A DNA stretch of 32,000 nucleotides from assembly GCF_003323735.1 (NCBI RefSeq), contig NZ_QOIM01000039.1, positions 39,349 through 71,348 of the forward strand. The letters run 5' to 3'. The notes beneath the pieces are model-generated. The model did no database searches. It was not told the origin of the DNA and saw only the letters and a list, made by a program, of their open reading frames with translations. Position 1 is the first letter of the stretch; each line of letters begins with the position of its first letter. This document shows, in pieces, positions 10,001 through 27,734 of this stretch. The stretch is from Streptomyces reniochalinae. Lineage in GTDB: Bacteria > Actinomycetota > Actinomycetes > Streptomycetales > Streptomycetaceae. The position numbers were made by a program, and so were the translations under genes.

Positions 10001-11918
10001 CACCGCGTACCACGCCCTGGTCGACCTGGCCGGGCTCACCGCGGGGGAGTCGGTGCTCGTGCACGCCGCCGCCGGCGGTGTCGGCATGGCCGCCGTGCAG
10101 ATCGCCGCGCACCTCGGGGCCGAGGTCTACGGCACCGCGAGCCAGGGCAAGCAGGACGTGCTGCGCGGCAACGGCCTCGCGGACCGGCGGATCGCGTCCT
10201 CGCGCACGCTCGACTTCGCGGACACCTTCGACGCCGCGTCCGGCGGCCGGGGCGTCGACGTGGTGCTCAACTCGCTCGCCGGAGACTTCATCGACGCCTC
10301 CCTGCGCCTGATGCCACGCGGCGGACGTTTCATCGAGATGGGCAAGGCCGACGTGCGCGACCCCGATGCCGTGGCACGAGCACAGCCCGGTGTCGAGTAC
10401 CAGAGCTTCGACCTGGCCGCGCTGCCCGGACAGCGGGTGGGGGAGATCCTCGGCGAGATCGTGTCCCTGTTCGACGAGGGGGCGTTGACGCTGCTGCCCG
10501 TCGAGACCTGGGACGTGCGCAGGGCGCGGGACGCCTTCCGGCACATCGCTCAGGCGCAGCACATCGGCAAGGTCGTGCTGACCATGCCGCGTGCGCTCGA
10601 CCCGGAAGGAACCGTGCTCGTCACCGGCGGCACCGGCGCCCTCGGCGCGCTGGCCGCGCGCCACCTCGTGACGGAACACGGTGTGCGTCACCTCGTGCTG
10701 ACGAGTCGCCGCGGCCCTGCCGGCGAGGGCGCCGCCGCGCTACGGGAGGAGCTGACCGCGCTCGGCGCCTCGGTCCGGGTCCTGGCCTGCGACGCGGCCG
10801 ACCGGGCCGCACTCGCCGGCGTGCTCTCGGACATCCCCAGCGAGCACCCGCTCACCGGCGTCGTGCACACCGCGGGGGTGCTGGCCGACGGCGTCGTCGC
10901 TGCGATGACCCCCGAACAGGTCGCACGCGTGCTGCGGCCGAAGGTGGACGCGGCGGTCAATCTGCACGAGCTGACCCGGGACACGGACCTCGCCGCGTTC
11001 GTCCTCTACTCAGGAGCGGCCGGCGTGCTGGGCAACGCCGGACAGGGCAACTACGCCGCCGCCAACACCTTCCTCGACGCCCTCGCCCGCCACCGGCACG
11101 CCGCGGGGCGCGCCGCCACCTCGCTGGCGTGGGGCCTGTGGGAGCAGGCACCCGGCACCGGCATCACCGGACACCTCGACGAGACGGACCTGCGCAGGCT
11201 GCGGCGGGGTGGCTTCGGCGCCCTGTCCGCGGAAGCGGGTCTGGCGCTGCTCGACGTCGCGCTCTCGTCCGACGAGGCGGCTCTCGTACCGATCCGGCTC
11301 GACCTCGCGGCCATGGGAGCGGCGGGGGTTCCCCCGCTGTTCAGCGGGCTCGTACGTACGCCCTCGCGGCGGGTGCTGAACTCCGGCGCGAGGGCGGCCG
11401 AGTCCCTCGCCGAACGGCTCGCCGCACTCCCGGAAGCCGAGCTGCAACCCGCCGTACTGGACCTGGTCCGCGGGCATGTGGCCGCCGTGCTCGGCTTCCC
11501 GGGCCCGGAATCCGTCGATCCGGGCCACGCCTTCAACGAGATCGGCTTCGACTCGCTGACCTCCGTGGAGTTCCGCAACCGGCTCATGGCCGCCACCGGG
11601 CTCCGGCTGCCCGCGACGCTCGTCTTCGACCATCCGACCCCCGAGGTGCTGGCCGCCCACCTGCTCGCCGAGATCGCGCCACCCACACGCACCCCCGAGG
11701 AGCGGCTGCTCGCCGAACTCGACCGGATCGAGGCGGCGCTCGCCGCCGCGGCGGCCGACGGCGGAAGCCCCGACCGGGTCACGGCGCGGTTGCAGCAGTT
11801 GTCGTCCAGCTGGCGCAAGCAGACGCGGGCCGCGGAGTCCGACGTCTCCGGGCAGTTGGAGAACGCCAGCGCGGACGAGGTACTCACGTTCATCGACAGC
11901 GAGCTCGGCCTCGCCTGA
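1008..11918 (+). CDS. Modular type I polyketide synthase, two extension modules (KS-AT-KR-ACP, KS-AT-DH-ER-KR-ACP)
   Basis: 3636-aa ORF with very high GC3. It has an N-terminal coiled-coil docking helix (residues 1-33, [19 protein letters not shown]), two complete modules (see module features) and a C-terminal docking tail ([15 protein letters not shown]). The KS is Cys-type, not KSQ, and there is no loading didomain. Confidence 0.97.
1107..5585 (+). other. PKS-1 module A: KS-AT(malonyl-type)-KR-ACP
   Basis: KS approx 1107-2340 (DTACSSS with Cys codon 1578-1580; EAHGTGT; [12 protein letters not shown]). AT approx 2660-3630 (GHSIGE with Ser codon 2943-2945; HAFH 3240-3251; [15 protein letters not shown]). 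KR approx 3890-5215 (TGGTGGLG 4527-4550; the K, S and Y signatures AAKLTG, FSSGAG and [13 protein letters not shown] are present). ACP approx 5355-5585 (LGFDS, Ser codon 5460-5462). Domain borders are approximate and were set by eye. Confidence 0.9.
5640..11680 (+). other. PKS-1 module B: KS-AT(malonyl-type)-DH-ER-KR-ACP (full reduction)
   Basis: KS approx 5640-6920 (Cys codon 6156-6158). AT approx 7220-8160 (GHSIGE with Ser codon 7485-7487; HAFH 7776-7787). DH approx 8285-9090 ([10 protein letters not shown] with His codon 8379-8381; GMRYGPTF; VPFSW; [10 protein letters not shown]). ER approx 9640-10590 (LNFRDVL; HAAAGGVG approx 10062-10085). KR catalytic part approx 10600-11150 (TGGTGALG; LAD 10881-10889 at the LDD position; [13 protein letters not shown]). 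ACP approx 11455-11680 (IGFDS, Ser codon 11553-11555). Confidence 0.9.
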
Positions 11919-11942: not shown

Positions 11943-14900
11943 ATGGCGACCGAGGAGCAGTTGGTCGAGTACCTCAAGCGCGTGACCACGGAGCTGCACG
12001 ACACCCGCGCGCGTCTGGAGCAGGCCGAGGACAAGGACCACGAACCGATCGCGATCATCGGAATGGCCTGCCGGTTCCCCGGCGGGATCGCCTCGCCCGA
12101 GGACCTGTGGCGCCTCGTCGCCGAGGGCACCGACGCGATGACGGGATTCCCCGAGGACCGCGGCTGGGACGTCGAGTCGCTCTACGACCCCGACCCCGAC
12201 CGCGTCGGCACGTCGTACGTGCGAGAGGGCGGGTTCATCGACGGTGCCACCGAGTTCGACCCCGCGTTCTTCCAGGTCAGCCCGCGCGAGGCCGCCGGCA
12301 TGGACCCCCAGCAGCGGCTCGCCCTGGAGACCGCGTGGGAGGCGATCGAACGCGCCGGGATCGACCCGACGACGCTGCGCGGCAGCCGTACCGGGGTGTT
12401 CGTGGGCGCGAACAGCGGCGAGTTCATGACGCTCATGACGCAGGCTGAACCCGAGTTGCAGGGCTACCTGATGACAGGTGTGTCCCCCAGCGTGGTGTCC
12501 GGGCGCATCTCCTACACGTTCGGGCTGGAGGGCCCCGCGGCGACCGTCGACACCGCGTGCTCCTCCTCGCTGACCGCGCTGCACCTCGCGGTGCGCGCAC
12601 TGCGCGACGGCGACTGCACGATGGCGGTCACCGGCGCGGTCACGGTGTTGTCCACCCCGGGCACGTTCATCGGGTTCAGCCGGCAGCGCGCGCTGGCGAA
12701 GGACGGCCGGTGCAAGGCGTTCTCCGCCGCAGCGGACGGCATGGCGGCCGCGGAGGGCGTCGGCATGTTCCTCGTCGAGCGGCTGTCCGACGCCGTGCGG
12801 CTGGGACACCCGGTGTGGGCGGTCGTGCGGGGCTCCGCGGTCAACCAGGACGGCGCCTCGAACGGCCTGACGGCGCCGAACGGTCCCTCGCAGCAGCGGG
12901 TGATCCAGCAGGCGCTCGCCAACGCGAAACTGTCGGCACGCCAGGTCGACGTCGTCGAGGCACACGGCACCGGCACGCCACTGGGTGACCCGCTCGAGGC
13001 GCAGGCGCTCATGGCCACCTACGGCCAGGACCGCCCGGACGGCCGGCCCCTGTGGATCGGCTCGGTCAAGTCCAACATCGGACACGCGCAGGCGGCGGCC
13101 GGCGCGGCCGGCATCGTCAAGGCCGTGATGGCCCTGCACCACGGCGTCATGCCCAAGACGCTGCACGCGCAGGAACGGTCACCGCACATCGACTGGGCCG
13201 AGGGCGACGTCGAACTGCTCACCGAGGCGCGCGCGTGGCACAGCGACGGCGAACCACGCCGGGCCGGTGTGTCGTCGTTCGGGTTCAGCGGCACCAACGG
13301 GCACGTCATCCTGGAGGAGTTCGAGGCACCGCCGGTGGACGACGCCGAGACAGGGGACCTGCCCTCGGTGCCGTGGGTGCTCTCGGCGCGCGGCGCCGAC
13401 GCGGTGCGCGGCCAGGCCCGCGCACTCCTGGCGCACCCCGCCGCCGACGCGGACCCGGCCGCCGTGGCCGCTTCGCTCGTCCGTGGCCGTTCCGCCTTCG
13501 AGCACCGCGCCGTCGTGGTGGGCGCCGACCGTGCGGAACTGGTCGCGGGGCTGCGGGCGCTGGGCGAGGGCGTGGACGCGGCGGGCGTGGTGGAGGGCGT
13601 CGCGGGGCCGCTGGGGAAGTCGGCGTTCGTGTTCCCCGGACAGGGCGGGCAGTGGGTGGGCATGGGCCTGGCGCTGGCCGGTTCGAACCCGGTGTTCGGG
13701 GAACGGCTGGCGGAGTGCGAACAGGCGCTGGCACCGTTCCTGGACTGGTCGCTGTCCGCGGTGCTGCGCGGCGACGACGACGCGCCGGGACTGGACCGCA
13801 TCGACGTGCTCCAACCCGTTTTGTGGTCGATGATGGTCTCGCTGGCGCAGGTGTGGCGCTCGTGCGGGGTGGAGCCCGCAGCGGTGGTGGGACACTCCCA
13901 GGGCGAGGTCGCGGCGGCCGTCGTCGCCGGCGCGCTGTCCCTGGAGGACGGTGCGCGGATCGTGGCGCTGCGCTCCCAGCTGCTGCTGGAGATCACCGGA
14001 CTCGGTGGCATGGCATGGGTACCGTCACCCGCCGACGAGGTCGGCGAGCGGCTCACGCGGTGGGCCGGGCGGCTGTGCGTCGCCGCCGTGAACGGGCCGT
14101 CCGCCACCGTCGTCTCCGGGGATCTCGACGCGCTGGAGGAACTGGTGGCCGCCTACGCGGCCGAGGGCGTACGGGTCCGCAAGGTCGGTTCGTCCTGCGC
14201 GGGCCACTCGGCGCAGGTGGAGGTGGTGGAGGAGCGGCTCGCTCAGATGCTGCGCCCCATCGAGCCGCGCGAGTGCGCCATCCCGTGGTACTCGACGGTC
14301 CGCGGCCGCTGGCTCACCGGAACCGAGGCCGACGCCGGGTACTGGTACGAGAACCTGCGTGAGCTCGTCGGGTTCGGCCCGGCCATCGAGGCGCTCGCCG
14401 CCGAGGGTTTCCGGCTCTTCGTCGAGTCCAGCGTCCACCCCACACTGAAGATCGACACGGAGGACAACCTGGAGAACGCCGGGGTGTCGGACGCGCTCGT
14501 GGTCGGCTCGCTGCGCCGCGACGACGGCGGCCCCGACCGCCTGACGGCCTCGCTGGCCGAGGCGTGGGTGCGTGGCGCGGACATCGACTGGGCGGGCCTG
14601 ATCGGTCCCCGGCCGCGGGTCGACCTGCCGACCTACGCGTTCCAGCGTCAGGCCTACTGGCCGAAGACCACGTCGCGGACGGTCGACGCCTCCGGACTCG
14701 GACTCGGCGCCCCCGCCCACCCGTTGCTCGGCGCCACCGTCTCACTCGCCGACGGCCAGGGGGTGATGCTCACCGGCAGGCTGTCCGTGAAGACGCACCC
14801 CTGGCTGGCCGACCACACGGTCGGCGGCCACGTGCTGCTGCCGGGCACCGCGTTCGTGGAGCTCGCCCTCCGCGCGGGCGACGAGGTCGGCTGCCGCCTC

Positions 14901-17900
14901 GTCGACGAGCTGACCCTGGAGGCCCCGCTGGTCCTGCCCGAGCGCGGTGGCGTGCAACTCCAACTGGCCGTGCACACCGCCGAGGACGGACGGCGCCCGT
15001 TCACCGTTCACTCCCGCGGCGACGACGCCGCACCGGACGAGCCGTGGACGAGGCACGCCACGGGTCTCCTCGCCGCCGACGCGCCCGCGGCACACTTCGG
15101 CCAGGACGTCTGGCCGCCGGCAGACGCGACCGCACTGGCCCCCGAGACGATCTACGACAAGGTGGCCGCGGTGGGCGTCGGGTACGGGCCCGCGTTCCGC
15201 GGACTGCGCGCACTGTGGCGGCGGAACGACGAGATCCTCGCCGAAGTCGCCCTGCCCCAGGACACCGCCGACAGCGACGGCTTCGGGCTGCACCCCGCGT
15301 TGCTCGACGCCGCGCTGCACCCGCTCGCCCTCAGCGGTGTCCTCGGCGACCGGGGGAGCGACGAGGGGCCGCTGCTGCCGTTCGCGTGGTCCGGCGTGCG
15401 GCTCCAGGCCACCGGCGCCACCGCACTGCGGGTCCGGCTGTCGCCCGCCGGTGGCAGCGCGGTCCGGGTGGACGTGGCGGACACCGCCGGTGTGCCGGTG
15501 GCGTCTGTCGACTCACTCGCCGTCAGGCCGCTGCCCGCCGAAGCCCTCAACCGCTCCGCGGATCCGCTGCGCGGCGGGCTGTTCCAGCTGGACTGGGTGC
15601 CCGCGCCGGCGCGCTGGGAGCCCGCTCTCGACGGTGCGACGTGCGTCCTTGTCGGCGAGTCGGACGAACTGCGGTCCGCGCTGGAAGCGGCGGGCGCCCG
15701 GATCGAGGACGCCTCCGTCCGTACACCGGACATGGGGTTCCTGGTGGTCGGCCGGCCCGCCGCGCCGGATCTGCCGGAGGCCGTGCGGGAGGCCACAGGG
15801 CAGGTGCTGGCCGCGGCCCAGGAGTGGCTGGCGGAGGACCGCAACGCCGGTGTGCCGCTCGTGGTGCTGACCCAGGGGGCGGTCGCGGTGGCCGAGGAGG
15901 CGCCCGCGGACCTGGCACAGTCGGCGGTCTGGGGGCTCGTCCGCTCGGCGCAGTCGGAGAACCCCGGCGGATTCGTGCTCGTCGACACGGACCTGACCCA
16001 TGCGTCGTGGGAGGCACTCGCCGCGTCGCTGGCCTCCGGAGAGCCGCAGATCGCGCTGCGCGAGGGCGTGGCCCACGTGCCCAGGCTCGCCCGGCACCCC
16101 GAGCCCGAGGAGCCCGCCGACCCGTGGGCCCGCGCCGGCACGGTGCTGATCACCGGTGGCACCGGCACGCTGGGCGCACTCGTCGCCCGCCACCTCGTCG
16201 TCGAACACGGCGTGCGCCGTCTGCTGCTGACCAGCAGGAGCGGCCCCGCCACCGAGCGGGCGGCGCGGCTGCGGGAGGAGCTCACCGAGCTGGGTGCCGC
16301 GGTGTCCGTCGTCGCCTGCGACGTGGCCGACCGCGAGGCCCTGGCGCAGGTGCTGGCCGCTGTCCCCGCCGAGCACCCGCTGACCGGTGTCGTGCACGCC
16401 GCGGGCGCGCTCGACGACGGTGTCCTCGCCTCGCTCACCCCCCAGCGGGTCGATGCCGTGCTGCGCCCCAAGGTGGAGGGCGCGCTGAACCTGGACGAGC
16501 TCACCCGAGACCTGCCGCTGTCCGCGTTCGTGCTGTTCAGCTCCGCCGCCGGTGTGTTCGGCGGTCCCGGCCAGGCCAACTACGCCGCGGCCAACGCGTT
16601 CCTCGACGCGCTCGCGCGGCGCAGGCGCGCCCAGCACCTCCCGGCCATGTCGCTGGCCTGGGGGCTGTGGGAAGAGGCCAGCGGACTGACCGGCGTGCTG
16701 GACGAAACCGACCGCGCGCGCCTGAGCCGGATCGGTGTGGGGCCGCTGTCCACCCCGGAGGGGCTGGCGCTGTTCGACGCGGCGTGCGCGGCCGACGCGC
16801 ACACGCTCGTCCCGGTCCGGCTGGAGTTCACGGCGCTGCGCGCGGCGGCCAGGGTCGGTGCCGTGCAGTCGATCCTGTGGGGCCTGGTGCCCTCCCCGGC
16901 GCGCCGGGTCGTCGGCGAGGGCGCGGCGGCGGCGTCCCAGCTGCGGGACCGGCTGGCCCGCATGCCGGAGTCGGAGTACATGCGCACGCTGCTGGAGGTG
17001 GTACGCACCCAGGCGGCGGTGGTGCTCGGGCTGCCGAACGCCGACGCCGTCGACGACCAGCGGGCGTTCCGGGAGGCCGGGTTCGACTCGCTGACCGCCG
17101 TCGAGTTCCGCAACCGGATGAACGCCACGACCGGGCTGCGGCTGCCCGCGACGCTCGTCTTCGACCATCCGACGCCGCACGCGCTCGCCGAGTACCTGCT
17201 CGCCGAGCTGCTCGACGCGGGGACCGGCGCGAGCGCACCCGCCACAAGGCAGGTGGGGGACGACGAGCCGATCGCCATCGTCGGCATGAGCTGCCGGCTG
17301 CCCGGTGGCGTGAGTTCGCCCGAGGACCTGTGGCAGCTCGTCGCCGACGGCGGTGACGTCATCTCGACGTTCCCGGCCGACCGCAACTGGAACCTCGACC
17401 AGCTCTACGACCCGGACCCCGAACACCGTGGCACCAGCTACACCCGGCACGGCGGGTTCATCTACGACGCGACCATGTTCGACGCGGCGTTCTTCGGCAT
17501 CTCACCGCGCGAGGCACTGACCATGGACCCGCAGCAGCGACTGCTGCTGGAGGGCGCCTGGGAGGCGCTGGAGCACGCGGGCATCGACCCTGCCGCGGTC
17601 CGCGGCAGCAGCACGGGCGTCTTCGTCGGGCTGACCTACCACGACTACGGCGCGCAGTTGCAGAACCTGCCCAGCGAACTGGAGGGCTTCGTCGGCACCG
17701 GGGTGTCCGCGGCGGTCGCCGCGGGCCGGGTGTCCTACACGTTCGGCTTCGAGGGGCCGTCGATGACCGTCGACACCGCGTGCTCCTCCTCGCTGGTGGC
17801 CCTGCACCAGGCGGCCCAGTCGCTGCGCCGCGGCGAGTGCTCGCTCGCGCTGTCCGGAGGCGTGACCGTGCTGTCCACGCCGGGAGTCTTCGTCGACTTC

Positions 17901-20900
17901 AGCCGCCAGCGCGGGCTGGCTCCGGACGGCCGGTGCAAGTCGTTCGCGTCCGCCGCCGACGGCACGGGCTGGAGCGAGGGCATGGGCGTGCTCGTGCTGG
18001 AGCGGCTGTCCGACGCGCGGCGCAACGGCCATCCGGTGCTCGCGGTGGTGCGCGGCAGCGCGGTGAACCAGGACGGGGCGAGCAACGGGCTGACCGCGCC
18101 GAACGGCCCCTCCCAGCAACGCGTGATCCGCCAGGCGCTCGCCGGCGCGGGACTGTCCGCCCCGGACGTCGACGCGGTCGAGGGACACGGCACCGGCACC
18201 ACGCTGGGCGACCCGATCGAGGCACAGGCGCTGTTGGCCACCTACGGCCAGGACCGGCCGGCGGACCGGCCGCTGTGGCTGGGCTCGGTGAAGTCCAACA
18301 TGGGGCACACGCAGGCCGCCGCCGGCATGGCCGGCGTGATCAAGATGGTGATGGCGCTGCGCAACGGCGTGCTGCCCGCGACGTTGCACGTGGACGAGCC
18401 GTCCGCGCACGTGGACTGGTCCACCGGCGCCGTCAGGCTGCTGACCGAGCCGCAGGACTGGCCGGTGGCACAGCGGCCGCGCCGCGCAGGTGTGTCCGCC
18501 TTCGGCATCGGCGGCACCAACGCGCACACCATCATCGAGGAGGCACCCGCCCGCCCTGTGGAGCAGGCCGCCGTGGAGACCGCGCGCCCACCGCTGGTGG
18601 GCTGGCCGCTGTCGGCGAAGAGCGCCCAGGCGCTGGCCGGACAGGCACGGCGGCTCCACGCCCACCTGGCGCGCCACCCCGAGCTGTCAGGCAACGACCT
18701 CGCGCACTCGCTCGCCACGACCAGGTCGGCGTTCCGGCACCGCGCGGTGGTCACCGGCGCGGGCCGAGACGAGCTCGTCGCGGGCCTGGAGGCGCTGATC
18801 GCGGGCGCGCCGGCGGCCAACCTGACCACCGGGACCACGCGCTCGGGCAAGGTGGCGTTCCTGTTCACGGGGCAGGGCAGCCAGCGACTGCGGATGGGGG
18901 AGGCCCTGTACGCGGCCTACCCGGTCTACGCGGCCGCGTTCGACGAGGTCTGCGCACAGCTGGACAAGCACCTGGACGGTCAACTGCGCGACGTGGTCCT
19001 CTCAGACGCCGAGTTGCTCAAGCGGACCGACTACACGCAGGCCGCGCTGTTCGCGGTCGAGGCCGCCCTCTACCGCCTGCTGCGCCACTGGGGCGTCAGG
19101 CCCGACTTCCTCGCGGGCCACTCGATCGGTGAGCTCGTCGCCGCCTACGTGGCCGGTGTCTTCTCGCTGGAGGACGCCGCCGCGCTGGTCGCGGCGCGCG
19201 GCCGCCTGATGCAGGCGCAGCCGCCCGCGGGCGCCATGGTGTCGGTGCGAGCACCGGAGGAGGCCGTCCGTCAGCTGCTCGACGGGAGGACCGACGAGGT
19301 CGGCATCGCCGCGGTCAACGGGCCGGCCTCCGTCGTGATCTCCGGAGTGACCGCGGCGGTCGAGGAGATCGCGGGGCTGCTCGCCGAGTCGGGGCACAAG
19401 ACCAGGAAGCTCGTCGTCAGCCACGCCTTCCACTCGCCACTGATGGACCCGGTACTCGCGGAGTTCACCGCCGTCGCCGAGGGCGTGGCCTTCCAGCCGC
19501 CCCGCATACCCGTCATCTCGGGCGTGACCGGAGCGCAAGCCACCGACGAGGAGCTGACCTCGCCCGCGTACTGGGCCAGGCACCTGCGCGACACGGTCAG
19601 GTTCCACGACGGCGTCGCCACCCTGCGGGACGCGGGCGTCACCACCTTCCTCGAACTCGGCCCCGACGCGGTGCTCTCCGCGATGGTCCAGGAGTGCGTC
19701 ACCGACGGCGATGTCGCCGTGGCCGCCGTGCTGCGGCGCGACCGCGACGAGGCCGCCGCCCTCCTCGACGCGCTCGCGCTGGCCCACACCGGGGGCGTCG
19801 ACGTGGACTGGGGGGCCGCCGCCGGGCCCGCCGACGTGGTGCCGCTGCCGACGTACGCCTTCCAGCGCACGTGGTTTTGGCCGGACGCGGCGCCGCCCAG
19901 GACCCCGGTCGAGGACCCGCTGTGGGCGGCGGTCGACAGCGAGGACCCGGACGCACTGGTGCGGCTGCTCGGGCCGGCCGCCGAGCACCGGGCCGAGGAC
20001 CTGCTGGCCGCGCTGGCGGCACTGCGCGACGGTTCCCCCGACCGCCTGCCCCGGTACCGGATCGAATGGACGCCGAGGGCCCAGACGCCCGAGGCCGCGC
20101 TGACCGGCACCTGGCTGCTGGTCGCCGGGCCGGGGGCGGACGATCCGCGGGTGCGCGATGTCGCCGCCGCGCTGACCTCGGCCGGCGCGGAGGTCAGCGC
20201 GGCGACCGCCGACGACCTCGGGGACGCGGGCGCGCCCGCCTACGCGGGGGTGGTCTGCCTGGTCCCGGCCGACGACGACACCGGATGGTTCGCCGATGCC
20301 GTGCTGTCGTCGGCGGCCGCCGACGGCGGGACCTCACCGGTGTGGCTGCTGACCTCGGGTGCGACGGCGCTGTCCGAGGACGGACCGGCCGCGGCGCGTG
20401 GGCACCTGCGGGCATGGGGGCTGGGGCGCGCCGCGGGAGCTGCACATCCGCAGCCCCGGGTCGGGCTCGTCGACCTGCCGCCGCGCCTGGACGGGCTGGC
20501 GCGCACCAGGTTGTGCGCCGTTTTGTCCGGGCGCACGGGTGAGGACGAGATCGCCCTCAGGCAGCCGGGCGCCTTCGTCCCCCGGCTGCGGCGGGTGCCA
20601 TCGCGGCGGGGCGGGCTGTGGCAGCCGGAGGGCACCGTCGTGGTCGCCGGAACGCTGGACGCGGCCGCGATCGCGTTCGCGCGCTGGGCCGCGGGCAACG
20701 GCGCGGACCGGGTCGTGGTGACCGCTCCCTGCATCGAGCTGGAGGGGGAGCCGGGGATCGTCGTCGACCAGGCAGACCCCGCGCAGGGCGGGCCGGCGGG
20801 GGACGCGCCGGCCGCCGTCTTGTACCGGGGAGAGGACGAGCACGTCGCCGAAGCCCTGCACGGGCTGGCCGCGTCGGGGGCGCTGGTGACCCTTCTCCCC

Positions 20901-21485
20901 GCCGAAGCGGTGTGGGGCGCTGCCGGGCCGAGCGCCTGCGCGGCGCTGGTCGGCTTCGATGCGCTGGCCCGTCGGCGGGCGGCGGCGGGGATGGCCTCGT
21001 TGTCCGCGGCCATCAGCGTCCGTGAACCGGCGGACGCCGTCACGGCGATCCGGCAGGCGCTCGCGGCAGGCGAGACGACCCTGGTCGTCACCGCCGACGG
21101 GCTGCCCTCGGACGGTGGGCGCTCGTCCCTGCTCGGTGGTGCCTCCGACCGCGGTGCGGCTTCTCAGTCCGGTGAGGAGCCCGCAGCCGGGGTGATCGAC
21201 AGCGCGGCGGAGTTCGGCCGGCGGTTCGCGGCGGTCGAGCCGGACGAGCGGGGCGCGTTCGTGCTGGAGCTCGTGCGTGCGCAGGTGGCCGCGCTGCTGA
21301 ACTTCGCGTCCGCCGAGGAGATCGACCCGGGCGTGGAGTTCTTCGAGTTCGGCATGTCCTCGATGGCCGCCATCGAACTGCGTGCCCGGATCGCCGCGCT
21401 GACCGACGTCCAGCTTGCCCCCGACGTGGTCTACGAGTACCCGAGCGCGGTCACGCTCGCCGAGTACCTGCTCACCGCTCTGTGA
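11943..21485 (+). CDS. Modular type I polyketide synthase, two extension modules (KS-AT-DH-KR-ACP, KS-AT-KR0-ACP), no release domain
   Basis: 3180-aa ORF starting 24 nt after the PKS-1 stop, with GGAGAAGGGG upstream of its ATG. Its N-terminal docking helix ([19 protein letters not shown]) is paralogous to that of PKS-1. The protein ends 40 residues after the last carrier-domain serine, and a hairpin follows the stop. Confidence 0.97.
12042..17215 (+). other. PKS-2 module C: KS-AT(branched-extender clade, CAGH motif)-DH-KR(B-type)-ACP
   Basis: KS approx 12042-13320 (Cys codon 12558-12560). AT approx 13625-14600 (GHSQGE with Ser codon 13896-13898; CAGH 14196-14207 in place of YASH; [10 protein letters not shown]). 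DH approx 14717-15530 ([10 protein letters not shown] with His codon 14814-14816; GVGYGPAF; LPFAW; [10 protein letters not shown]). KR approx 15590-16690 (TGGTGTLG from approx 16150; LDD 16410-16418; [13 protein letters not shown]). ACP approx 16990-17215 (AGFDS, Ser codon 17088-17090). Confidence 0.9.
17265..21482 (+). other. PKS-2 module D: KS-AT(malonyl-type)-degenerate KR (KR0)-atypical carrier domain
   Basis: KS approx 17265-18545 (Cys codon 17781-17783). AT approx 18856-19830 (GHSIGE with Ser codon 19122-19124; HAFH 19422-19433). The KR structural subdomain is recognisable at approx 20050-20600. The catalytic subdomain (approx 20620-21080) reads [13 protein letters not shown] (20631-20669) instead of TGGTGxLG, and has Cys (20937-20939) where the catalytic Tyr sits. 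Carrier core is [14 protein letters not shown] (Ser codon 21360-21362). Confidence 0.85.
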
Positions 21486-21488
21486 ACG

Positions 21489-21533
21489 CCCGCGGCGGCT
21501 GCCGGACACGCGGTGTCCGGCAGCCGCCGCGGG
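21489..21533 (+). terminator. Perfect 21-bp stem / 3-nt loop hairpin, 4 nt after the PKS-2 stop (intrinsic terminator candidate without a U-tract)
   Basis: CCCGCGGCGGCTGCCGGACAC (21489-21509), loop GCG, GTGTCCGGCAGCCGCCGCGGG (21513-21533). The arms are exact reverse complements, checked base by base. No T-run follows the stem. Confidence 0.7.
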
Positions 21534-21597
21534 AGCTGTGTCAGCCACTCCACGATCGGCATGTCATGAATCCGACAATCCCGGGGGGTATTGCGAG

Positions 21598-22767
21598 ATG
21601 ACAGCCATCCAGAGCACGCCCACGGAAGGGGCCCGTTCGTCACCCCTGCCGTCTCTGACCGGCCTGCGGTTCGTCGCCGCGATGGCGGTCTTCTTCTGGC
21701 ACGTCGGCAACCTTGGGGTCTTCGCCGACAAGGACGCCGGCTCCGCCTACATGACCGTCTTCTACCAGGGCGGCTGGACGGCGGTGAACTTCTACTTCGT
21801 CCTCAGCGGCTTCATCCTCACCTGGTCGGCGAGGCCGGCCGACACGGCGCGCGTGTTCTGGCGGCGGCGGTTCTTCCGGATCTACCCCAACTACCTCGTC
21901 TCCCTCGCGGCCGCCGTGCTCGTCGGCGACCTGGTGCTCCTCTTCTACCGGGACACCGGCATGAGGCTCTTCTCCGGGTTCCTCAACGTGTTCATGCTCC
22001 AGGCGTGGTTCCCCGACGAGCGCATCGAGTTCGGCATCAACAGCATCGCGTGGTCCATGTCGGTGGAGGCGTTCTTCTACCTGTGCTTCCCGTTGCTGGT
22101 GAAGTACGTGCGCAGGATCCCCGCGAAACGGCTGTGGTTCACCGCGATGGGACTGATGGCCGCTGTGTGGATGGTGCCGCTCGTCGCCCAGCTTCTGCCC
22201 GACCAGCCGCGGACCTTCCTCGGCCCGGTGTCCAGAACGCAGTACTGGTTCGTCTACGTGTTCCCGCTGACGCGCCTGTTCGAGTTCGTGCTGGGCATGG
22301 TGATGGCGCGGATCGTGATGGCGGGTCGCTGGGTGCGCCTCGGCGCGCTTCCGGTGGCGCTGATCGTCCTGGCCGGATACGTGCTGCCCGACGTCCTGAC
22401 CTTCCTGCCGTGGTCCTTCCGCCAGACGGCCTGCTCGGTGATCCCCATGGCACTGCTGATCCCCACCGTGGCGACGTGCGACCTGGCGGGGCGGTGGACG
22501 CCCTTCCGCGGCCAGGTCATGGTGTGGCTCGGCGGCGTCTCCTACGCCTTCTTCCTGTTGCACGCCCGGGTGATCTCCGCCGCGCACCAATGGCTCGGCA
22601 GCGAGACATGGGAGACACCGATGGCGGTCGCCGTGATCGTGTTCATGTTCGTCGCCACACTGACCGCTGCCGGGTTGCTGTTCACCCTCGTGGAGCGGCC
22701 GGTCATGAAGCGGTGGAGGTCGCCCCGGCGCAGGTCAGCGCCGCACATCGAGCCCAGCGCCCCGTGA
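21598..22767 (+). CDS. Integral-membrane acyltransferase, acyltransferase-3 (OafA/MdmB-like) family
   Basis: 389 aa counted from the ATG at 21598, which has a G-rich RBS-like GGGGGG 8 nt upstream. The track ORF start at 21415 would read through the terminator hairpin. The N-terminal LTGLRFVAAMAVFFWH matches the family signature (conserved Arg and His around the first TM helix). The protein is hydrophobic with multiple predicted TM segments throughout. Confidence 0.85.
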   Translation: MTAIQSTPTEGARSSPLPSLTGLRFVAAMAVFFWHVGNLGVFADKDAGSAYMTVFYQGGWTAVNFYFVLSGFILTWSARPADTARVFWRRRFFRIYPNYLVSLAAAVLVGDLVLLFYRDTGMRLFSGFLNVFMLQAWFPDERIEFGINSIAWSMSVEAFFYLCFPLLVKYVRRIPAKRLWFTAMGLMAAVWMVPLVAQLLPDQPRTFLGPVSRTQYWFVYVFPLTRLFEFVLGMVMARIVMAGRWVRLGALPVALIVLAGYVLPDVLTFLPWSFRQTACSVIPMALLIPTVATCDLAGRWTPFRGQVMVWLGGVSYAFFLLHARVISAAHQWLGSETWETPMAVAVIVFMFVATLTAAGLLFTLVERPVMKRWRSPRRRSAPHIEPSAP

Positions 22768-22849
22768 CGGGACAAGGCTCGCTCGACAGCCGCCACTCGG
22801 CAGCGTGCGTCATGACCGCTCAGCTTCGCTCAACGAGAAAGGGGCCTAC

Positions 22850-24055
22850 ATGTCCACCAACAACCCCGTGAACCTGCGGGACAGGCGGCTGCTCACCGAC
22901 CCGCACACCGCCTACAGCGAGTTGCGCGAGGCGGGCCCACTCGTGCGGGCCACCGCGCTGGACGGCAGCCAGGTCTGGCTGGTCACCCGCCAGGAGGACG
23001 TTCAGCCTCTGCTCGCCGACCGCCGCCTGTTCACCGACCCCGAGGCGGCGGGCAGCTCGACGGTGAACGTCCGCAGCCGGATGCTGGAGAAGATGGGCGT
23101 TCCCGCCGAGGTGCTGCCCCACCTGACCGAGACGCTCCTCGACCTCGACGGTGCCGACCACACCCGCATCCGCAAGCTGGTCTCGCGGACCTTCACCGCA
23201 CGCCGGGTCGGAGCGCTGCTCCCACGCGTCGAGGAGATCACCTCGAATCTCCTCGACCGGCTCACGGGAGCCGACCTGGTGCAGGAGCTCGGCTATCCGC
23301 TCCCGATCACGGTGATCTGCGAGTTGGTCGGGGTGCCGGAGGCCGACAGGGCCGACTGGCGCCGGTGGTCGGACGCGTTCATGAGGATGGATCGCCAGAT
23401 GCCCGCGGCGTTGCGGGAGATGGTCGAGTACTGCCACGACCTCACCGCGAGCAGGCGGGCGTATCCGCGTCAGGACCTGCTCTCCGGCATGGTCGCGGAG
23501 GTCGACGAGCACGGTGAGGCGCTCACCGACGGGGAGATCGTCACGATGCTGATCTTCCTCGTCTTCGCCGGCCACGAGACGACCGCGCACCTGATCACCA
23601 ATGGCGCGCACGCCCTGATGACCCATCCCGAACAGCTCACGCTGCTGCGCGACGACCCCTCGCTGTGGCCGTCGGCGGTCAACGAGTTGATGCGGTTCTG
23701 TAGCCCGGTGCTGTCGGCCAGGGTCCGCTACCTCGCGGAGGACGTGGAGATCGGCGGCGTCATGGTCCCGGCGGGGGAGGCGGTCATGCCGGTCGTCGTC
23801 TCGGCCAACTACGACCCGCGTGTGTACCAGGACCCCGAGCGGCTCGACGTCACACGCAAGGCGGCCGGGCACCTCGGTTTCGGCGCCGGCCCGCACTACT
23901 GCCTGGGCGCGGCTCTGGCCCGCCAGGAGGGTGAGGTCGCCCTGCGCGGCCTGTTCGAGCGCTACCCCGGCATCCGCTTCTGCGGACCGGAGCCACAGTG
24001 GTCGGACCGGCCGGGAATGTACCGGCTGCTGAGTCTCCCGGTCACGCTCGGCTGA
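22850..24055 (+). CDS. Cytochrome P450 monooxygenase
   Basis: 401 aa counted from the ATG at 22850 (RBS AAAGGGG, 5-nt spacing). I-helix FAGHETT, K-helix ELMRF (ExxR) and heme-thiolate loop FGAGPHYCLGAALAR are present. Confidence 0.92.
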   Translation: MSTNNPVNLRDRRLLTDPHTAYSELREAGPLVRATALDGSQVWLVTRQEDVQPLLADRRLFTDPEAAGSSTVNVRSRMLEKMGVPAEVLPHLTETLLDLDGADHTRIRKLVSRTFTARRVGALLPRVEEITSNLLDRLTGADLVQELGYPLPITVICELVGVPEADRADWRRWSDAFMRMDRQMPAALREMVEYCHDLTASRRAYPRQDLLSGMVAEVDEHGEALTDGEIVTMLIFLVFAGHETTAHLITNGAHALMTHPEQLTLLRDDPSLWPSAVNELMRFCSPVLSARVRYLAEDVEIGGVMVPAGEAVMPVVVSANYDPRVYQDPERLDVTRKAAGHLGFGAGPHYCLGAALARQEGEVALRGLFERYPGIRFCGPEPQWSDRPGMYRLLSLPVTLG

Positions 24056-24057
24056 GC

Positions 24058-24112
24058 CTCCTGACGCAGTCCACGGATCGCCGGGACGCCGATCCGTGGA
24101 CTGCGTCAGGAG
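24058..24112. terminator. Perfect 23-bp stem / 9-nt loop hairpin between convergent genes (bidirectional terminator candidate)
   Basis: Left arm 24058-24080 (CTCCTGACGCAGTCCACGGATCG), loop CCGGGACGC, right arm 24090-24112 (CGATCCGTGGACTGCGTCAGGAG). It starts 3 nt after the P450 stop and lies about 150 nt beyond the stop of the minus-strand FG-GAP gene. There is no T-tract on either side. Confidence 0.75.
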
Positions 24113-24261
24113 ACCCACCCAAGGCGCACAGCGCCCGGGCGGGACCGCTCGGCGTCCAGGCGCCACCCGCCGCCGGGGGCGGCCCGTGCGCTGCCCCCGG
24201 GAGGCGGTGCAGGACACCGCCGGCCGGAGCGCGGGGCGCGCGGCCGCTTGCCCGCGACGGC

Positions 24262-25185
24262 TCAGCTGATCGTGTCGTACCGGTCGAAGCCCGTACCGAC
24301 CGTGACGGGCTCGGAGAAGAGGCTTTCCGGGTTGTCGGGGTCGAACCTTCCGGAGTGGACGAACGCGGACAGCGTCCCGTCCGGGCGCAGTGCCAGCAGG
24401 TCCGGCTTGCCGTCGAGGTCCACGTCGGTGAGTGTCATGTACTTCATGTCCTGCCAGCCGCGGGCGACCGTGTACCAGGTGCCGCTCGCAGGGTCGGCGT
24501 ACTCGACGCCCGGCTTGCCGGGGAACTCGAACAGGGCGATGTCGCCGTCTGGGCGGCGCACCAGCAGGTCCAGGTTGCCGTTCCCGGTGAAGTCGGCCAT
24601 GGCGAACGGGAAGTCGTCGGGGTTGATCGTCGTCAGCGGCAGGGGTTCCCTGTCGTAGGTGTCGTCCGCTATCACCCCGGCGTTCAGGTGCGGGAAGCAG
24701 TCGAAATTGCCGGCGCCCAGACCGCGGGAGAAGATGTCGTCGTTGCCGCTGCCGGTGATGTCGGCGAACCCGAACGTGGACCAGTACCGGTCGTCCTCGC
24801 GTTTGCCCGAGATGCGCGTCGGTTCACCGAACGGGCCGATCTCGCCGGGCCCACCGAGATTCTGGAGCAGGAAGAAGCCGAAGACGCCGTTCTCACCGGT
24901 GTTGATCTTCCGGACCTCGCCGTTGACGGTGACCTCTTTTACGCTGAACGCACACAGCTCGGCGCGCCCGTTACCGGTGACGTCGCACGCCTGAATGAAG
25001 CAGAAGCGCTCTCTGCCGAAGTTGTCGCCGATCTTGACCGGGTCCTCGTACGTCTGCGTGCCGTTGAGCTTTCCGCTGTGCGGGTAGACCCAGAGCGCGC
25101 CGGTCTCGGCTGAGCGCACAAGCAGGTCCAGCTTGCCGTCACCGCGGAAGGAACGGCATGCGCCGTTGTTGAATGCGAACGCCAC
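24262..25185 (-). CDS. FG-GAP / VCBS repeat beta-propeller protein (function unknown)
   Basis: At least five repeats contain the Ca-binding-like loop D-x-(T/D)-G-(N/S/D)-G-x-x-(D/E)-L: FRGDGKLDLLV, DVTGNGRAEL, DITGSGNDDI, DFTGNGNLDLLV, DVDLDGKPDLLA. The start is ambiguous. I prefer the GTG at 25185, which has GGAG 8 nt upstream and is preceded by 16 codons with GC3 of only about 31 %. In-frame alternatives are ATGs at 25275, 25311 (would give a weak signal-peptide-like N-terminus, MPSGRVNTAQGVMFWGYLGLGVA/QS) and 25356 (the track ORF). Confidence 0.75.
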   Translation of the reverse strand: MAFAFNNGACRSFRGDGKLDLLVRSAETGALWVYPHSGKLNGTQTYEDPVKIGDNFGRERFCFIQACDVTGNGRAELCAFSVKEVTVNGEVRKINTGENGVFGFFLLQNLGGPGEIGPFGEPTRISGKREDDRYWSTFGFADITGSGNDDIFSRGLGAGNFDCFPHLNAGVIADDTYDREPLPLTTINPDDFPFAMADFTGNGNLDLLVRRPDGDIALFEFPGKPGVEYADPASGTWYTVARGWQDMKYMTLTDVDLDGKPDLLALRPDGTLSAFVHSGRFDPDNPESLFSEPVTVGTGFDRYDTIS

Positions 25186-25226: not shown

Positions 25227-25401
25227 TTGTTTCCGACGACTGTGCGACGCCCAACCCCAGATACCCCCAGAACATCACCCCCTGCGCGGTGTTCACGCGC
25301 CCCGACGGCATGCGACCGGTCCCGGCACGATGTCCCGGCGTCCGCACCGGAGGCATCGCCGGGAGTGCTGCCCGGTAAACCCCGGGAGCCGGGGCGACGC
25401 G

Positions 25402-25424
25402 CGCCTGTCGGCGGCCGACAGGCG
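25402..25424. repeat. 23-bp perfect palindrome (11-bp arms around a central G) in the FG-GAP / ALDH divergent region; candidate operator
   Basis: CGCCTGTCGGC G GCCGACAGGCG, with every arm position checked as complementary. It lies 107 bp upstream of the ALDH ATG. My rough estimate is that a palindrome of this arm length arises by chance about 0.06-0.6 times in 32 kb at this GC content, so it is only modestly significant. Confidence 0.4.
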
Positions 25425-25530
25425 GCAGGTGCCCCCTAGACCGCCCCTGACAGCCGCCCCAGAACGACGCTTCGCCGCACCGCCACCGCTAGCTTCGACC
25501 GTCCGCCCGGTAGATTCCGAAGGGGAGCCC

Positions 25531-26946
25531 ATGCGGCAGTACTCCATGACCATCGGTGGCGAGAGCGTAGCCGGGAACGCGACGTTCGATGTCGTCAACC
25601 CCGCCACGGCCGAGGTGCACGCGGCGGCTCCCGAATGCGAGGCGGAGCAGCTCGACGCCGCTTTCGCGGCCGCACACCAGGCGTACGGAACGTGGCGGAA
25701 GAACGAGCGCGCACGCCGCCGGGCGCTGCACGCCGCGGCGGACCTGCTGATGCGCCGGACGGACCAGCTGGCGCCCGTGCTCACCGCGGAACAGGGCAAG
25801 CCGCTCAAGGACGCCGCTTTCGAGATCGCCGGCGCCGGATGGTGGCTGAAGCACTTCGCCGACATGCCCCTCCCGCACGAGGTCATCCGCGACGACGCCG
25901 AGGCCCGTGTCGAGGTGGTGCGCCGCCCGATGGGCGTGGTCGCGGCGATCACCCCGTGGAACTTCCCGCTCATGCTGGCCTGCTGGAAGCTCGGCCCCGC
26001 TCTGCTGGCCGGCAACACGGTGGTGCTCAAGCCCTCCCCTTACACCCCGCTGACGACGCTGGCGCTCGGTGAGCTGCTGCGCGAGGTGCTCCCTCCGGGG
26101 GTGGTGAACGTGGTGAGCGGGTCGGACCCGCTCGGAGCGCGGATGACCGCGCACCCGGTGCCGCGCAAGATCAGCTTCACCGGCAGTGTCGCGACGGGAA
26201 AGGAAGTGGCCGCGGTCGCCGCCGGCGACCTCAAGCGGGTCACCCTCGAACTCGGCGGCAACGACCCCGCGATCGTGCTCGACGACGCGGACCCGCGCGC
26301 CGTCGCCCCGCACCTGTTCCAGCACGCTTTCGAGAACAACGGCCAGCTCTGCTCCGCGATCAAACGCGTGTACGTGTCCGAACGCCGGCACGACGACCTC
26401 GTCGAGGTGATGGCGAAGCTCGCCCGTGAGGCGAAGGTCGGCAACGGGTTCGACGACGGCGTCCGGTTCGGCCCGATCAACAACGAGCCGCAGTTCGAGC
26501 GGATCGTCGAGCTGGTGGAGGACGCCCGAGGCCGGGGCGCGACGGTCGCGGCGGGTGGCGGGCCGCTCGAGGGGCCCGGCTACTTCTACCGGCCGACCGT
26601 CTTGGCCGATGTCGACGACAGCGTCCGCGTCGTCCATGAGGAGCAGTTCGGGCCTGTCTTGCCGATCGTGCGCTACACGTCGCTCGACGAGGTGATCGCC
26701 CGCGCCAACGAGAGCCACTTCGGTCTGGACGGTTCGGTCTGGGGCACGGACACCGACCGCGCGGCCGAGGTCGCCGCCGCCCTCGAGTGCGGCACGACCT
26801 GGGTCAACACGCACTTCTCCGTGCACCCGGGCCAGCCGTTCGGCGGGCACAAGTGGAGCGGTGTGGGCGTGGAGAACGGACGCCTGGGGCTCGAAGCCTT
26901 CACCGAGGTCCAGGTGCGCAGCCGGCACAAGGGGAATGTTGCCTAG
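25531..26946 (+). CDS. NAD(P)+-dependent aldehyde dehydrogenase
   Basis: 471 aa counted from the ATG at 25531 (RBS GAAGGGGAG). Motifs present: ITPWNFP, KPSPYTP, FTGSVATG, the catalytic Glu in LELGGNDP, the catalytic Cys in FENNGQLCSAIKR, and EEQFGPV. Confidence 0.92.
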   Translation: MRQYSMTIGGESVAGNATFDVVNPATAEVHAAAPECEAEQLDAAFAAAHQAYGTWRKNERARRRALHAAADLLMRRTDQLAPVLTAEQGKPLKDAAFEIAGAGWWLKHFADMPLPHEVIRDDAEARVEVVRRPMGVVAAITPWNFPLMLACWKLGPALLAGNTVVLKPSPYTPLTTLALGELLREVLPPGVVNVVSGSDPLGARMTAHPVPRKISFTGSVATGKEVAAVAAGDLKRVTLELGGNDPAIVLDDADPRAVAPHLFQHAFENNGQLCSAIKRVYVSERRHDDLVEVMAKLAREAKVGNGFDDGVRFGPINNEPQFERIVELVEDARGRGATVAAGGGPLEGPGYFYRPTVLADVDDSVRVVHEEQFGPVLPIVRYTSLDEVIARANESHFGLDGSVWGTDTDRAAEVAAALECGTTWVNTHFSVHPGQPFGGHKWSGVGVENGRLGLEAFTEVQVRSRHKGNVA

Positions 26947-26966
26947 TGGGCAAGGATGCCCAATCA

Positions 26967-27000
26967 GCAAATTTGCCGAGTGAGCATTTTCTGGTACCTT
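26967..27000 (+). promoter_or_regulatory. Candidate tetR promoter with overlapping 10-bp palindrome (possible autoregulatory operator)
   Basis: The 60-bp gap between ALDH and tetR is locally AT-rich. It contains the perfect palindrome GCAAATTTGC (26967-26976), a -35-like TTGCCG (26973-26978), 16 nt, then a -10-like TACCTT (26995-27000). The -10 ends 6 nt before the ATG at 27007, which suggests a leaderless transcript. The call is by eye only. Confidence 0.3.
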
Positions 27001-27006
27001 GGCTGC

Positions 27007-27621
27007 ATGTCCGATGAGCCAGTGCTGGGCCTGCGCGAGCGCAAGAAGATAGACACACGCAAGGCGCTGAGCGACGCCGCCGTGGAGTTGATGTACGAGC
27101 GCGGTCTGAAGAACCTCGTCCGGGAGGAGATCGCGGCCCGCGTCGGCGTGTCACCGCGCACCTTCGGCAACTACTTCGCCAGCAAGTACGAAGCCTTGGC
27201 CTACCGGCTGGGCGACCGGATCCGCCGCAGTGCCGAGCTGCTGCGGGCCCGCCCCGCCCAGGAGCCGCTGTGGACGGCGATCGCCGAGGCCATGGTCGAG
27301 CCGCTGTGGGCGGACGGAGCGCCGTTCGGACGGCCGACGCGGGAGCAGCTCGTCGAGTTGCGCAAGCTGAGCCTGGTCCCGGAGATGCAGGAGGCCATGG
27401 CGCGGGCGTCCATCGACGACCTCGTCGACGCGATCGCCGCGCGCACGGGCACCGACGCGCGCAACGACCTGTATCCGCGGCTCGTCGCGCGCATCACCGT
27501 CACCGCGGTGAACGCCGTGATGGACCGCTATGTGCACACGGACGAGCCGGTGAAGATCCCCGACCTGCTCCGCGAGGTGATCACCAGTATTTCGGAAGGA
27601 CTGCCGCCGCCCGAGCGGTGA
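27007..27621 (+). CDS. TetR/AcrR-family transcriptional regulator
   Basis: 204 aa counted from the ATG at 27007. The N-terminal HTH region (LRERKKIDTRKALSDAAVELMYERGLKNLVREEIAARVGVSPRTFGNYFASKYEAL) is typical of the TetR_N domain. The C-terminal ligand domain is divergent. Confidence 0.9.
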   Translation: MSDEPVLGLRERKKIDTRKALSDAAVELMYERGLKNLVREEIAARVGVSPRTFGNYFASKYEALAYRLGDRIRRSAELLRARPAQEPLWTAIAEAMVEPLWADGAPFGRPTREQLVELRKLSLVPEMQEAMARASIDDLVDAIAARTGTDARNDLYPRLVARITVTAVNAVMDRYVHTDEPVKIPDLLREVITSISEGLPPPER

Positions 27622-27720: not shown

Positions 27721-27734
27721 AAGGAACAGAACGC

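Follow-up and report, generated by a model that had tools for sequence, protein, structure and literature searches.

PKS-2 of Streptomyces reniochalinae, a probable last polyketide synthase of a tetramate-type assembly line with a degenerate terminal ketoreductase

A decayed ketoreductase in the last module of PKS-2

The window analyzed here is a 32,000-nucleotide stretch of high-GC actinomycete DNA from Streptomyces reniochalinae (contig NZ_QOIM01000039.1, positions 39,349 to 71,348 of the forward strand), in which two adjacent modular polyketide synthase (PKS) genes, PKS-1 and PKS-2, are encoded. The last module of PKS-2 contains a degenerate ketoreductase, here termed KR0, and the protein stops shortly after its last carrier domain. 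Our analysis indicates that PKS-2 is most probably the final PKS, though not the final synthetase, of a hybrid line of PKS proteins and nonribosomal peptide synthetases (NRPSs) making a tetramate of the lydicamycin/TrdC type. The two PKS genes and the features of the last module are listed below (KS, ketoacyl synthase; AT, acyltransferase; DH, dehydratase; ER, enoylreductase; KR, ketoreductase; ACP, acyl carrier protein; N-dock and C-dock, N- and C-terminal docking elements).

1008-11918, plus strand: PKS-1, 3,636 aa, N-dock, KS-AT-KR-ACP, KS-AT-DH-ER-KR-ACP, C-dock (motifs, domain string); feeds PKS-2
11943-21485, plus strand: PKS-2, 3,180 aa, N-dock, KS-AT-DH-KR-ACP, KS-AT-DE-KR0-ACP, stop (open reading frame, translation, Pfam)
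17265-18545, plus strand: KS of the last module (Pfam ketoacyl-synt, aa 1775-2025)
18840-19805, plus strand: AT of the last module, malonyl type (GHSIG at aa 2392, HAFH)
19911-20045, plus strand: dimerization element, DE (Pfam PKS_DE, aa 2657-2701, E 3e-4, under the curated cut-off)
20049-20612, plus strand: KR0 structural subdomain, RYRIEWTP onward, aligning to structural subdomains of solved PKS KRs; moderate-confidence model
20613-21137, plus strand: KR0 catalytic-subdomain remnant; NADPH motif, Lys, Ser, and Tyr gone and about 75 residues deleted
21228-21482, plus strand: terminal ACP with a G(M/F)SSM-type core (Pfam PP-binding, E 6e-13)
21489-21533, plus strand: hairpin after the PKS-2 stop codon (21-bp stem, 3-nt loop)

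Going by its domain content, the last module should add one malonate unit. Its KS retains the Cys of DTACSSS (aa 1944) and both His motifs, HGTGT and GHT, its AT carries the GHSxG motif, and its carrier has the expected Ser, as in cis-AT modular type I PKS extension modules. The AT motifs are kept in the orthologues of PKS-2. The DE is an element that precedes KRs in modules lacking a DH, and it is kept even in the Micromonospora orthologue, which has no KR. In the first module of PKS-2, the AT shows GHSQG (13890-13904) and CAGH (14196-14207), where methylmalonyl ATs have YASH. CAGH is also found in the Micromonospora and metagenome orthologues and suggests an unusual extender unit.

A preliminary description of this DNA, made from its letters alone, had called the last KR dead. 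All of its motifs and coordinates were reproduced, and neither Pfam, alignment with the sibling KRs, nor alignment with KRs in the PDB recovered an NADPH site or a Lys/Ser/Tyr set. RYRIEWTP lies at 20052-20075, and the degenerate counterparts of the NADPH motif, the Ser stretch, and the Tyr stretch lie at 20631-20669, 20892-20927, and 20934-20969, respectively. Aligned with the three intact KRs of the window, KR0 reads (V)AGTLDAAA in place of TGGTGxLG and LLPAEA in place of FSSAAG, the catalytic Tyr is replaced by Cys (codon 20937-20939), and two deletions of about 45 and 30 residues include the region of the catalytic Lys. The Pfam KR profile finds the sibling KR of PKS-2 with an E value of 7e-63; in the last module, only profile positions 1-35 of 180 match, at E values of 0.2-0.9. 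By sequence, the alignment with KRs from the PDB is confined to the structural subdomain and, of the catalytic half, its first strand. Thus, none of the elements of an active PKS KR of the short-chain dehydrogenase/reductase type, i.e., the Gly-rich motif, Lys, Ser, and Tyr, was found in KR0. Neither do the features of C2-type epimerizing KRs occur here, with Tyr and Ser gone and an AT of the malonyl type. Judged by these residues, KR0 is a noncatalytic relic and cannot be a C2-type epimerase. Inactive PKS KRs of the C1 and C2 types, such as PikKR3 (PDB 3qp9), similarly keep the two-subdomain scaffold without NADPH-dependent reduction; compared to these, KR0 of PKS-2 is far more degraded, with about 75 residues deleted and Lys, Ser, and Tyr all lost.

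Orthologous loci were read in Micromonospora sp. NPDC049275 (L081), a soil metagenome (L085), Streptomyces sp. NBC_00370 (L088), and Embleya hyalina (L090). In the latter three, the terminal PKS has 3,158-3,276 aa and ends in DE-KR0-ACP, with lesions like those of PKS-2: the glycine motif is gone, FSS is lost, and Cys, Thr, or Ser stands in for Tyr. The 2,780-aa Micromonospora orthologue, 77% identical to PKS-2 over residues 2-2660, has lost the KR entirely, with the DE now fused to the linker of the ACP, yet its ACP core and every partner gene are still there.

Might KR0 nonetheless have retained a nonreductive catalytic role, such as C2-type epimerization, or an essential scaffolding role in handing off the chain? 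Its reading frame is kept in four lineages. In a comparison of the window with the metagenome orthologue, the ratio of nonsynonymous to synonymous substitution rates (dN/dS) was 0.46 in the structural half and 0.55 in the catalytic remnant, below neutrality, versus 0.14-0.33 in active domains; dS in GC-rich genes is only a rough yardstick, and these values indicate relaxed but not absent constraint. An AlphaFold model of KR0 (mean predicted local distance difference test score, 73.7) shows two subdomains in a KR-like arrangement, interrupted by disordered gaps, and resembles solved PKS KRs, including the C2-type PikKR3. This model was built on an alignment of active KRs and is thereby biased to a KR fold; a reduced KR fold is plausible, and the model shows nothing more. 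Against such a role stand the loss of the Tyr and Ser of epimerizing KRs, the malonyl extender, which leaves no alpha-substituent, and the Micromonospora orthologue, which deleted the whole KR and kept the DE, the ACP, and the partners. We consider a retained role unlikely. KR0 may rather be kept as a folded spacer under relaxed constraint, and it would be dispensable because one orthologue, that of Micromonospora, has deleted its KR.

An unusual terminal carrier and no release domain

The terminal ACP contains its core at 21333-21380, with the presumed phosphopantetheine attachment site Ser3140 (codon 21360-21362), and PKS-2 ends 40 residues further on (stop codon, 21483-21485). The core reads GMSSM. 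Among about 470 ACP cores taken from the 150 best-scoring PKS representatives, G(M/F)SSM was not encountered once, and an Asp precedes the Ser in 96%. The same motif is common to five lineages including that of the window, extending to G(M/F)SSMAA(I/M)EL in the metagenome, Streptomyces sp. NBC_00370, and Embleya. The preliminary description had judged this core to differ from that of the first three ACPs and to be closer to that of a peptidyl carrier protein (PCP). It is indeed unusual, but the likeness to PCPs did not hold: the terminal ACP shares 34-41% identity with its sibling ACPs versus 21-25% with the PCPs of the pathway, and GMSSM differs from the GG(H/D)S(L/I) of NRPS PCPs. Its best matches in a whole-library HMMER search are modular PKS ACPs, although this search ranks multi-ACP megasynthases by summed score and defines no ACP clade. 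The "FF" of its core is not kept in the closest orthologues (FIEF, FVEF). A homology search with the KR0-ACP region returned fragments only, with at most 38% identity.

No Pfam match to Thioesterase, NAD_binding_4, or Condensation was obtained in PKS-2, and it lacks a docking tail such as the approximately 70 residues that follow the last ACP of PKS-1. The absence of a thioesterase (TE), terminal reductase, condensation domain, and docking tail, proposed earlier, is thereby borne out. In all four orthologous loci, too, the terminal PKS has the ending DE-(KR0)-ACP, carries a G(M/F)SSM core, and is without a docking tail.

The perfect 21-bp hairpin described earlier was recovered beyond the stop codon, with arms at 21489-21509 and 21513-21533 (21/21 pairs, ΔG of -54.4 kcal/mol, z score of -7.8) and no T-run, as was the 112-bp gap between the stop codon and the next ATG at 21598. 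The hairpin is absent from the orthologues: in Micromonospora, the start of the acyltransferase gene overlaps the PKS stop codon, and the corresponding gap of the metagenome measures 28 bp.

A Dieckmann cyclase and a glycine-type NRPS in the same genome

The Micromonospora locus comprises, in order, the 2,780-aa PKS, an acyltransferase, and an O-methyltransferase (OMT), and, convergent to these, genes for an MFS transporter, a TetR regulator, a flavin monooxygenase, a C-A-PCP NRPS (condensation, adenylation, and PCP domains), a 276-aa protein, and a 6,016-aa PKS. The 276-aa protein is without a Pfam match and resembles the solved Dieckmann cyclase NcmC. Used as a query, it retrieved a 276-aa protein of S. 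reniochalinae (MGY1434175.1; 68% identity), which matches NcmC (6e6t) with an E value of 4e-48 and aligns with its catalytic triad through Cys88 in GFCVGS (GFCxGS), Asp115 in FDPE, and the His in DEDHAELL. Its gene resides on the same 7.8-Mb chromosome as that of the acyltransferase MGY1434188.1, 13 accession numbers away; the latter protein is 100% identical to the acyltransferase encoded directly downstream of PKS-2.

At this S. reniochalinae locus (L083), a 6,006-aa PKS gene, the cyclase gene (10001-10831), and a gene for a 1,035-aa C-A-PCP NRPS are contiguous on one strand, followed by a convergent 12,174-aa PKS gene. The NRPS gene directly follows that of the cyclase and precedes that of the acyltransferase by 12 accession numbers. 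The NRPS starts almost immediately with its C domain (HHANFDG) and ends just past the PCP without a TE. The best PDB match of its A-PCP region is LgrA residues 1207-1793 (4e-156, versus 4e-113 for the next match), which we take to be a glycine module, and a hand-read A-domain code, DMLSIGLVWK, resembles that for Gly. Hence, this protein probably loads glycine. For the glycine NRPS NcmB from nocamycin biosynthesis, the published pocket is DILQLGVI (PMC5466765). Two short tandem arrays, with about four copies of CCGGTGCGCCTCCGTC and about six copies of GGCCGACT, lie in the intergenic DNA (13942-14408) that separates the NRPS gene from the 12,174-aa PKS gene.

In the four orthologous loci, the terminal PKS gene lies at most 10 kb from the cyclase-NRPS pair (6-9 kb in Micromonospora and the metagenome). 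From this synteny we infer that the C-A-PCP of S. reniochalinae belongs to the same cluster as PKS-2. All in all, three features of a TrdC/NcmC-type line were found: a 3-oxo last module without a TE, reductase, or C domain in cis, a C-A-PCP protein, and a discrete Cys-Asp-His cyclase. The preliminary description had anticipated a discrete partner inside or outside the window and named a tetramate-type condensing enzyme among its options outside, in agreement with the pair identified here.

Alternatively, the NRPS and cyclase might serve another PKS, for instance the 6,006-aa protein, with PKS-1 and PKS-2 forming a separate adjacent pathway with its own release enzyme. This is suggested by gene order, the 6,006-aa PKS, cyclase, and NRPS genes being contiguous on one strand and PKS-2 being at least about 50 kb away, a distance that, like the orientation of the window, rests on accession order rather than continuous DNA. 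However, the last module of the 6,006-aa PKS is DH-KR-ACP followed by a PKS-type C-dock, which expects a PKS partner, and this protein cannot supply a 3-oxo chain because its last KR is intact. The 6,006-aa and 12,174-aa PKSs both end in an ACP and a C-terminal docking tail, like PKS-1, and only PKS-2 is without one. Moreover, PKS-1 and PKS-2 possess N-docks, the PKS-2 orthologue is found close to the NRPS-cyclase pair in Micromonospora and the metagenome (see above), and the colinear lydicamycin cluster has the same domain strings (PMC4572681, PMC7143880). A separate pathway is therefore very unlikely in our estimate.

Comparison with known tetramate assembly lines

The lydicamycin cluster of Streptomyces lydicamycinicus TP-A0598 (TPA0598_03_00790, _00800, _00810, and _00820) is colinear (PMC4572681, PMC7143880). 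It encodes a 3,662-aa PKS (KS/AT/KR/ACP-KS/AT/DH/ER/KR/ACP), a 3,265-aa PKS (KS/AT/DH/KR/ACP-KS/AT/KR/ACP), a 270-aa unknown protein, and a 253-aa type II thioesterase (TEII) (PMC4572681 Table 5, PMC7143880 Table 3), as well as a 1,031-aa C/A/T NRPS that adds glycine ahead of tetramic acid formation (PMC4572681, PMC7143880). The abbreviation list of the 2015 paper on this cluster, one of these two, contains the entry "kr: inactive KR." As far as domain strings are compared, the last two PKSs of both clusters are identical (3,662 and 3,265 aa versus 3,636 aa for PKS-1 and 3,180 aa for PKS-2), and the string of PKS-1 equals that of TPA0598_03_00790 (PMC7143880 Table 3). Both also share a final KS/AT/KR/ACP module whose product must retain a keto group, a protein close to 270 aa in length, a glycine C/A/T NRPS of about 1,030 aa, and a TEII. 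Differences are equally evident. Lydicamycin is built by seventeen PKS modules in eight proteins, together with genes for a 4-guanidinobutyryl starter (amine oxidase, transacylase), and its upstream PKSs are six proteins totaling about 23,600 aa, a set unmatched by the 12,174-aa and 6,006-aa proteins of S. reniochalinae, on which ground identity with the lydicamycin cluster was rejected. Furthermore, the terminal PKS of S. reniochalinae does not adjoin the cyclase-NRPS pair, and the window adds an Acyl_transf_3 protein, an OMT, two cytochromes P450 (P450s), and an aldehyde dehydrogenase.

In nocamycin biosynthesis, the last module is without a KR, and NcmB (Gly) and NcmC release the tetramate (PMC5466765). 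This off-loading, known also from tirandamycin, streptolydigin, and alchivemycin (AvmQ), has in common with the line proposed here a last module without an active KR and without a TE in cis, a stand-alone C-A-PCP (for Gly in nocamycin), and then a discrete Cys-Asp-His Dieckmann cyclase (PMC5466765, PMC9349299). In contrast to nocamycin, where the KR is simply missing, PKS-2 still contains a decayed KR, and the polyketide portions of these lines are unrelated in size. The alchivemycin (avm) cluster was set aside as a match, its reported ribosomal protein and RNA polymerase genes and lack of an OMT or acyltransferase being at odds with the window.

S. reniochalinae LHW50302 is known for bripiodionen. 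According to the outline and the first part of the Results of the paper on its bpd cluster (PMC10956176), this too is a tetramate line of the PKS-NRPS kind, in which BpdE is the TrdC-type cyclase and the last module is KS-AT-ACP, but it is another locus, with BpdA of 2,212 aa, BpdB of 2,629 aa, BpdE of 267 aa, and a split NRPS for Asn. On these protein sizes and domain strings, bpd was rejected as the identity of the present cluster. The window is part of a second tetramate-type cluster of S. reniochalinae, which goes unmentioned in the same parts of that paper. S. reniochalinae thus has two TrdC-type Dieckmann cyclases, BpdE and the 276-aa protein; of the two, only BpdE appears in those parts of the paper, which reports a BLAST search of the genome with TrdC (PMC10956176).

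Proposed release of the chain and alternatives

In a colinear reading, the preceding modules would give 9-hydroxy, 6,7-saturated, and 4-substituted 4,5-enoyl units. The last module would then produce a 3-oxoacyl-S-ACP because KR0 is noncatalytic and KS, malonyl AT, and carrier are present, as the preliminary description had also expected of a malonyl-type module with a dead KR. The C domain of the stand-alone C-A-PCP may take the chain straight from the G(M/F)SSM ACP without docking domains, and the C-A-PCP would form N-(3-oxoacyl)-glycyl-S-PCP. The NcmC/TrdC-type Cys-Asp-His cyclase encoded beside the NRPS could then perform the Dieckmann condensation and release a 3-acyl tetramic acid. Dieckmann closure requires the 3-oxo group because it depends on an acidic methylene at C2, flanked by the 3-oxo and the amide carbonyls. 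A chain end with 9-hydroxy, 6,7-saturated, 4,5-enoyl, and 3-oxo functions would suit the tether and dienophile of a decalin- or octalin-forming precursor, as in lydicamycin. PKS-2 would accordingly conclude the PKS part of the line but not the line itself, because its partner is a further synthetase module plus a trans-acting Dieckmann cyclase. The preliminary description had regarded PKS-2 as the terminal protein, a view that a further synthase acting after it would refute, and we revise this view.

Several points weigh against this assignment. The link between PKS-2 and the NRPS is putative, and a 36.5-kb PKS gene, placed by consecutive accession numbers, lies in the interval of at least about 50 kb between their genes. 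The order of the subunits is conjectural, since the N-termini of the 6,006-aa and 12,174-aa PKSs and about three to seven intervening genes lie outside the DNA that was read. A docking element between the fourth ACP, at the end of PKS-2, and the C domain was not identified. The glycine specificity is predicted from similarity and a hand-read code, and the presumed product belongs to a cluster that is not lydicamycin's own, with upstream PKSs of different sizes.

An alternative is that PKS-2 truly ends the line and that release occurs in trans by one of two enzymes encoded around the PKS genes:

1-762, plus strand: TEII, presumably editing (Pfam Thioesterase, E 7e-62)
21598-22767, plus strand: membrane acyltransferase (Acyl_transf_3; Pfam E 2e-29)

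The TEII might hydrolyze the chain to a 3-oxo acid, whose decarboxylation would give a methyl ketone, or the acyltransferase might transfer it onto an acceptor, and the preliminary description had named these two as candidates within the window. Apart from flanking the PKS genes, the acyltransferase has orthologues (60-62% identity) adjoining PKS-2 orthologues; it is encoded downstream of the latter in the two closest lineages, Micromonospora and the soil metagenome, with the overlap of stop and start in Micromonospora mentioned above. TEIIs of this family, however, are editing enzymes. Several Acyl_transf_3 relatives are named as sugar or peptidoglycan O-acyltransferases, and the acyltransferase of the window is probably a tailoring O-acyltransferase. 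The lydicamycin cluster also lists a TEII, of 253 aa (PMC4572681). Finally, the C-A-PCP and Dieckmann cyclase co-occur with the PKS-2 orthologue in five lineages, where they would otherwise lack a 3-oxoacyl donor. The cyclase-NRPS pair is the better fit, and we regard release by either in-window enzyme as highly improbable.

Tetronate-type release, in which the 3-oxoacyl-S-ACP would undergo condensation involving a glyceryl-ACP (FkbH) and a FabH-like enzyme, is hardly credible: terminal 3-oxo modules without a TE are typical of tetronate lines as well, yet FkbH/FabH-like genes were not found in the window or the related loci read (about three to seven S. reniochalinae cluster genes lie outside that DNA), their place being taken by an NcmC-type cyclase and an NRPS module.

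With PKS-2 placed ahead of the C-A-PCP and the cyclase, an apparently orphan PKS without a release function becomes part of a second tetramate-type cluster in a sponge-derived strain that is amenable to genetics and has been studied for bripiodionen. The cluster appears to be undescribed and probably makes a lydicamycin-like decalin-tetramic acid with tailoring by O-acylation, O-methylation, and P450s. The enzymatic logic is already textbook for tetramate lines, and the arrangement is not unusual. The series of KR remnants offers testable hints on what share of a dead domain a module still requires, and the odd but conserved core of the ACP offers such hints on how an ACP finds a C domain in trans.

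It is tempting to speculate, although we think it rather doubtful, that the G(M/F)SSM core and an altered helix III (LxxDVVY(E/D)xP versus LPATL(V/I)FDHP) form a dedicated recognition code. Just as tentatively, this code might enable the docking-free ACP to pass its chain in trans to a C domain that stands alone and is encoded tens of kilobases away, and KR0 could, with similar reservation, be a spacer that can be dispensed with and is seen at three steps of its disappearance (long remnant, short remnant, and clean deletion). If true, this type of terminal ACP could be a portable PKS-to-NRPS connector and could mark TrdC-type tetramate lines in genome mining.

Further genes of the window and related loci

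Downstream of the acyltransferase gene, the window holds the following:

22805-24055, plus strand: first P450
24262-25356, minus strand: FG-GAP protein (FG-GAP repeat matches)
25330-26946, plus strand: aldehyde dehydrogenase
26956-27621, plus strand: TetR regulator
within 27270-29291, plus strand: MFS transporter
29455-30804, plus strand: second P450
31007-32000, plus strand: OMT, cut by the window end (tblastn with the Micromonospora OMT, 77% identity over 320 aa)

This OMT is the orthologue of that encoded downstream of the acyltransferase in related clusters. A 271-aa minus-strand reading frame at 31022-31837, considered as a cyclase candidate, was rejected; it has no Pfam match, the plus strand encodes the OMT, and the frame is probably spurious. 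A plus-strand reading frame of 371 aa (23998-25113) is probably spurious as well, since the overlapping minus strand encodes the FG-GAP protein; it had no family match in Pfam or NCBIfam. A megablast search of 19800-24100 against plasmids gave no matches.

Two metagenome assemblies, L084 (5737-9972) and L085 (496-9972), share 99% identity from a point within the last KS onward and diverge upstream. In one of them, a single-module 1,411-aa PKS with a different N-dock lies beside ABC transporter genes. Either an assembly chimera at the KS repeat or a real recombinant accounts for the divergence.

A search of genome contigs with the TEII yielded one related locus, in Micromonospora sp. NPDC049274 (L001). 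Upstream of the TEII (460-8570), it encodes an AMP ligase, a PigA/RedW-like prolyl-carrier-protein dehydrogenase (E 1e-122), a SerRS-like amino acid-ACP ligase, a 3-hydroxybutyryl-CoA dehydrogenase, and an odd AT-KS-ACP protein. In contrast to the genes for the 4-guanidinobutyryl starter of lydicamycin, this relative thus has PigA/RedW-like and amino acid-ACP ligase genes, a hint that the related cluster uses an unusual unit, pyrrole-2-carboxyl or another. Directly upstream of its TEII lies a P450 gene (8593-9783), with 81% DNA identity to the second P450 gene of the window. Since this gene stands upstream of the TEII there and elsewhere in the window, tailoring genes have been rearranged between the two clusters.

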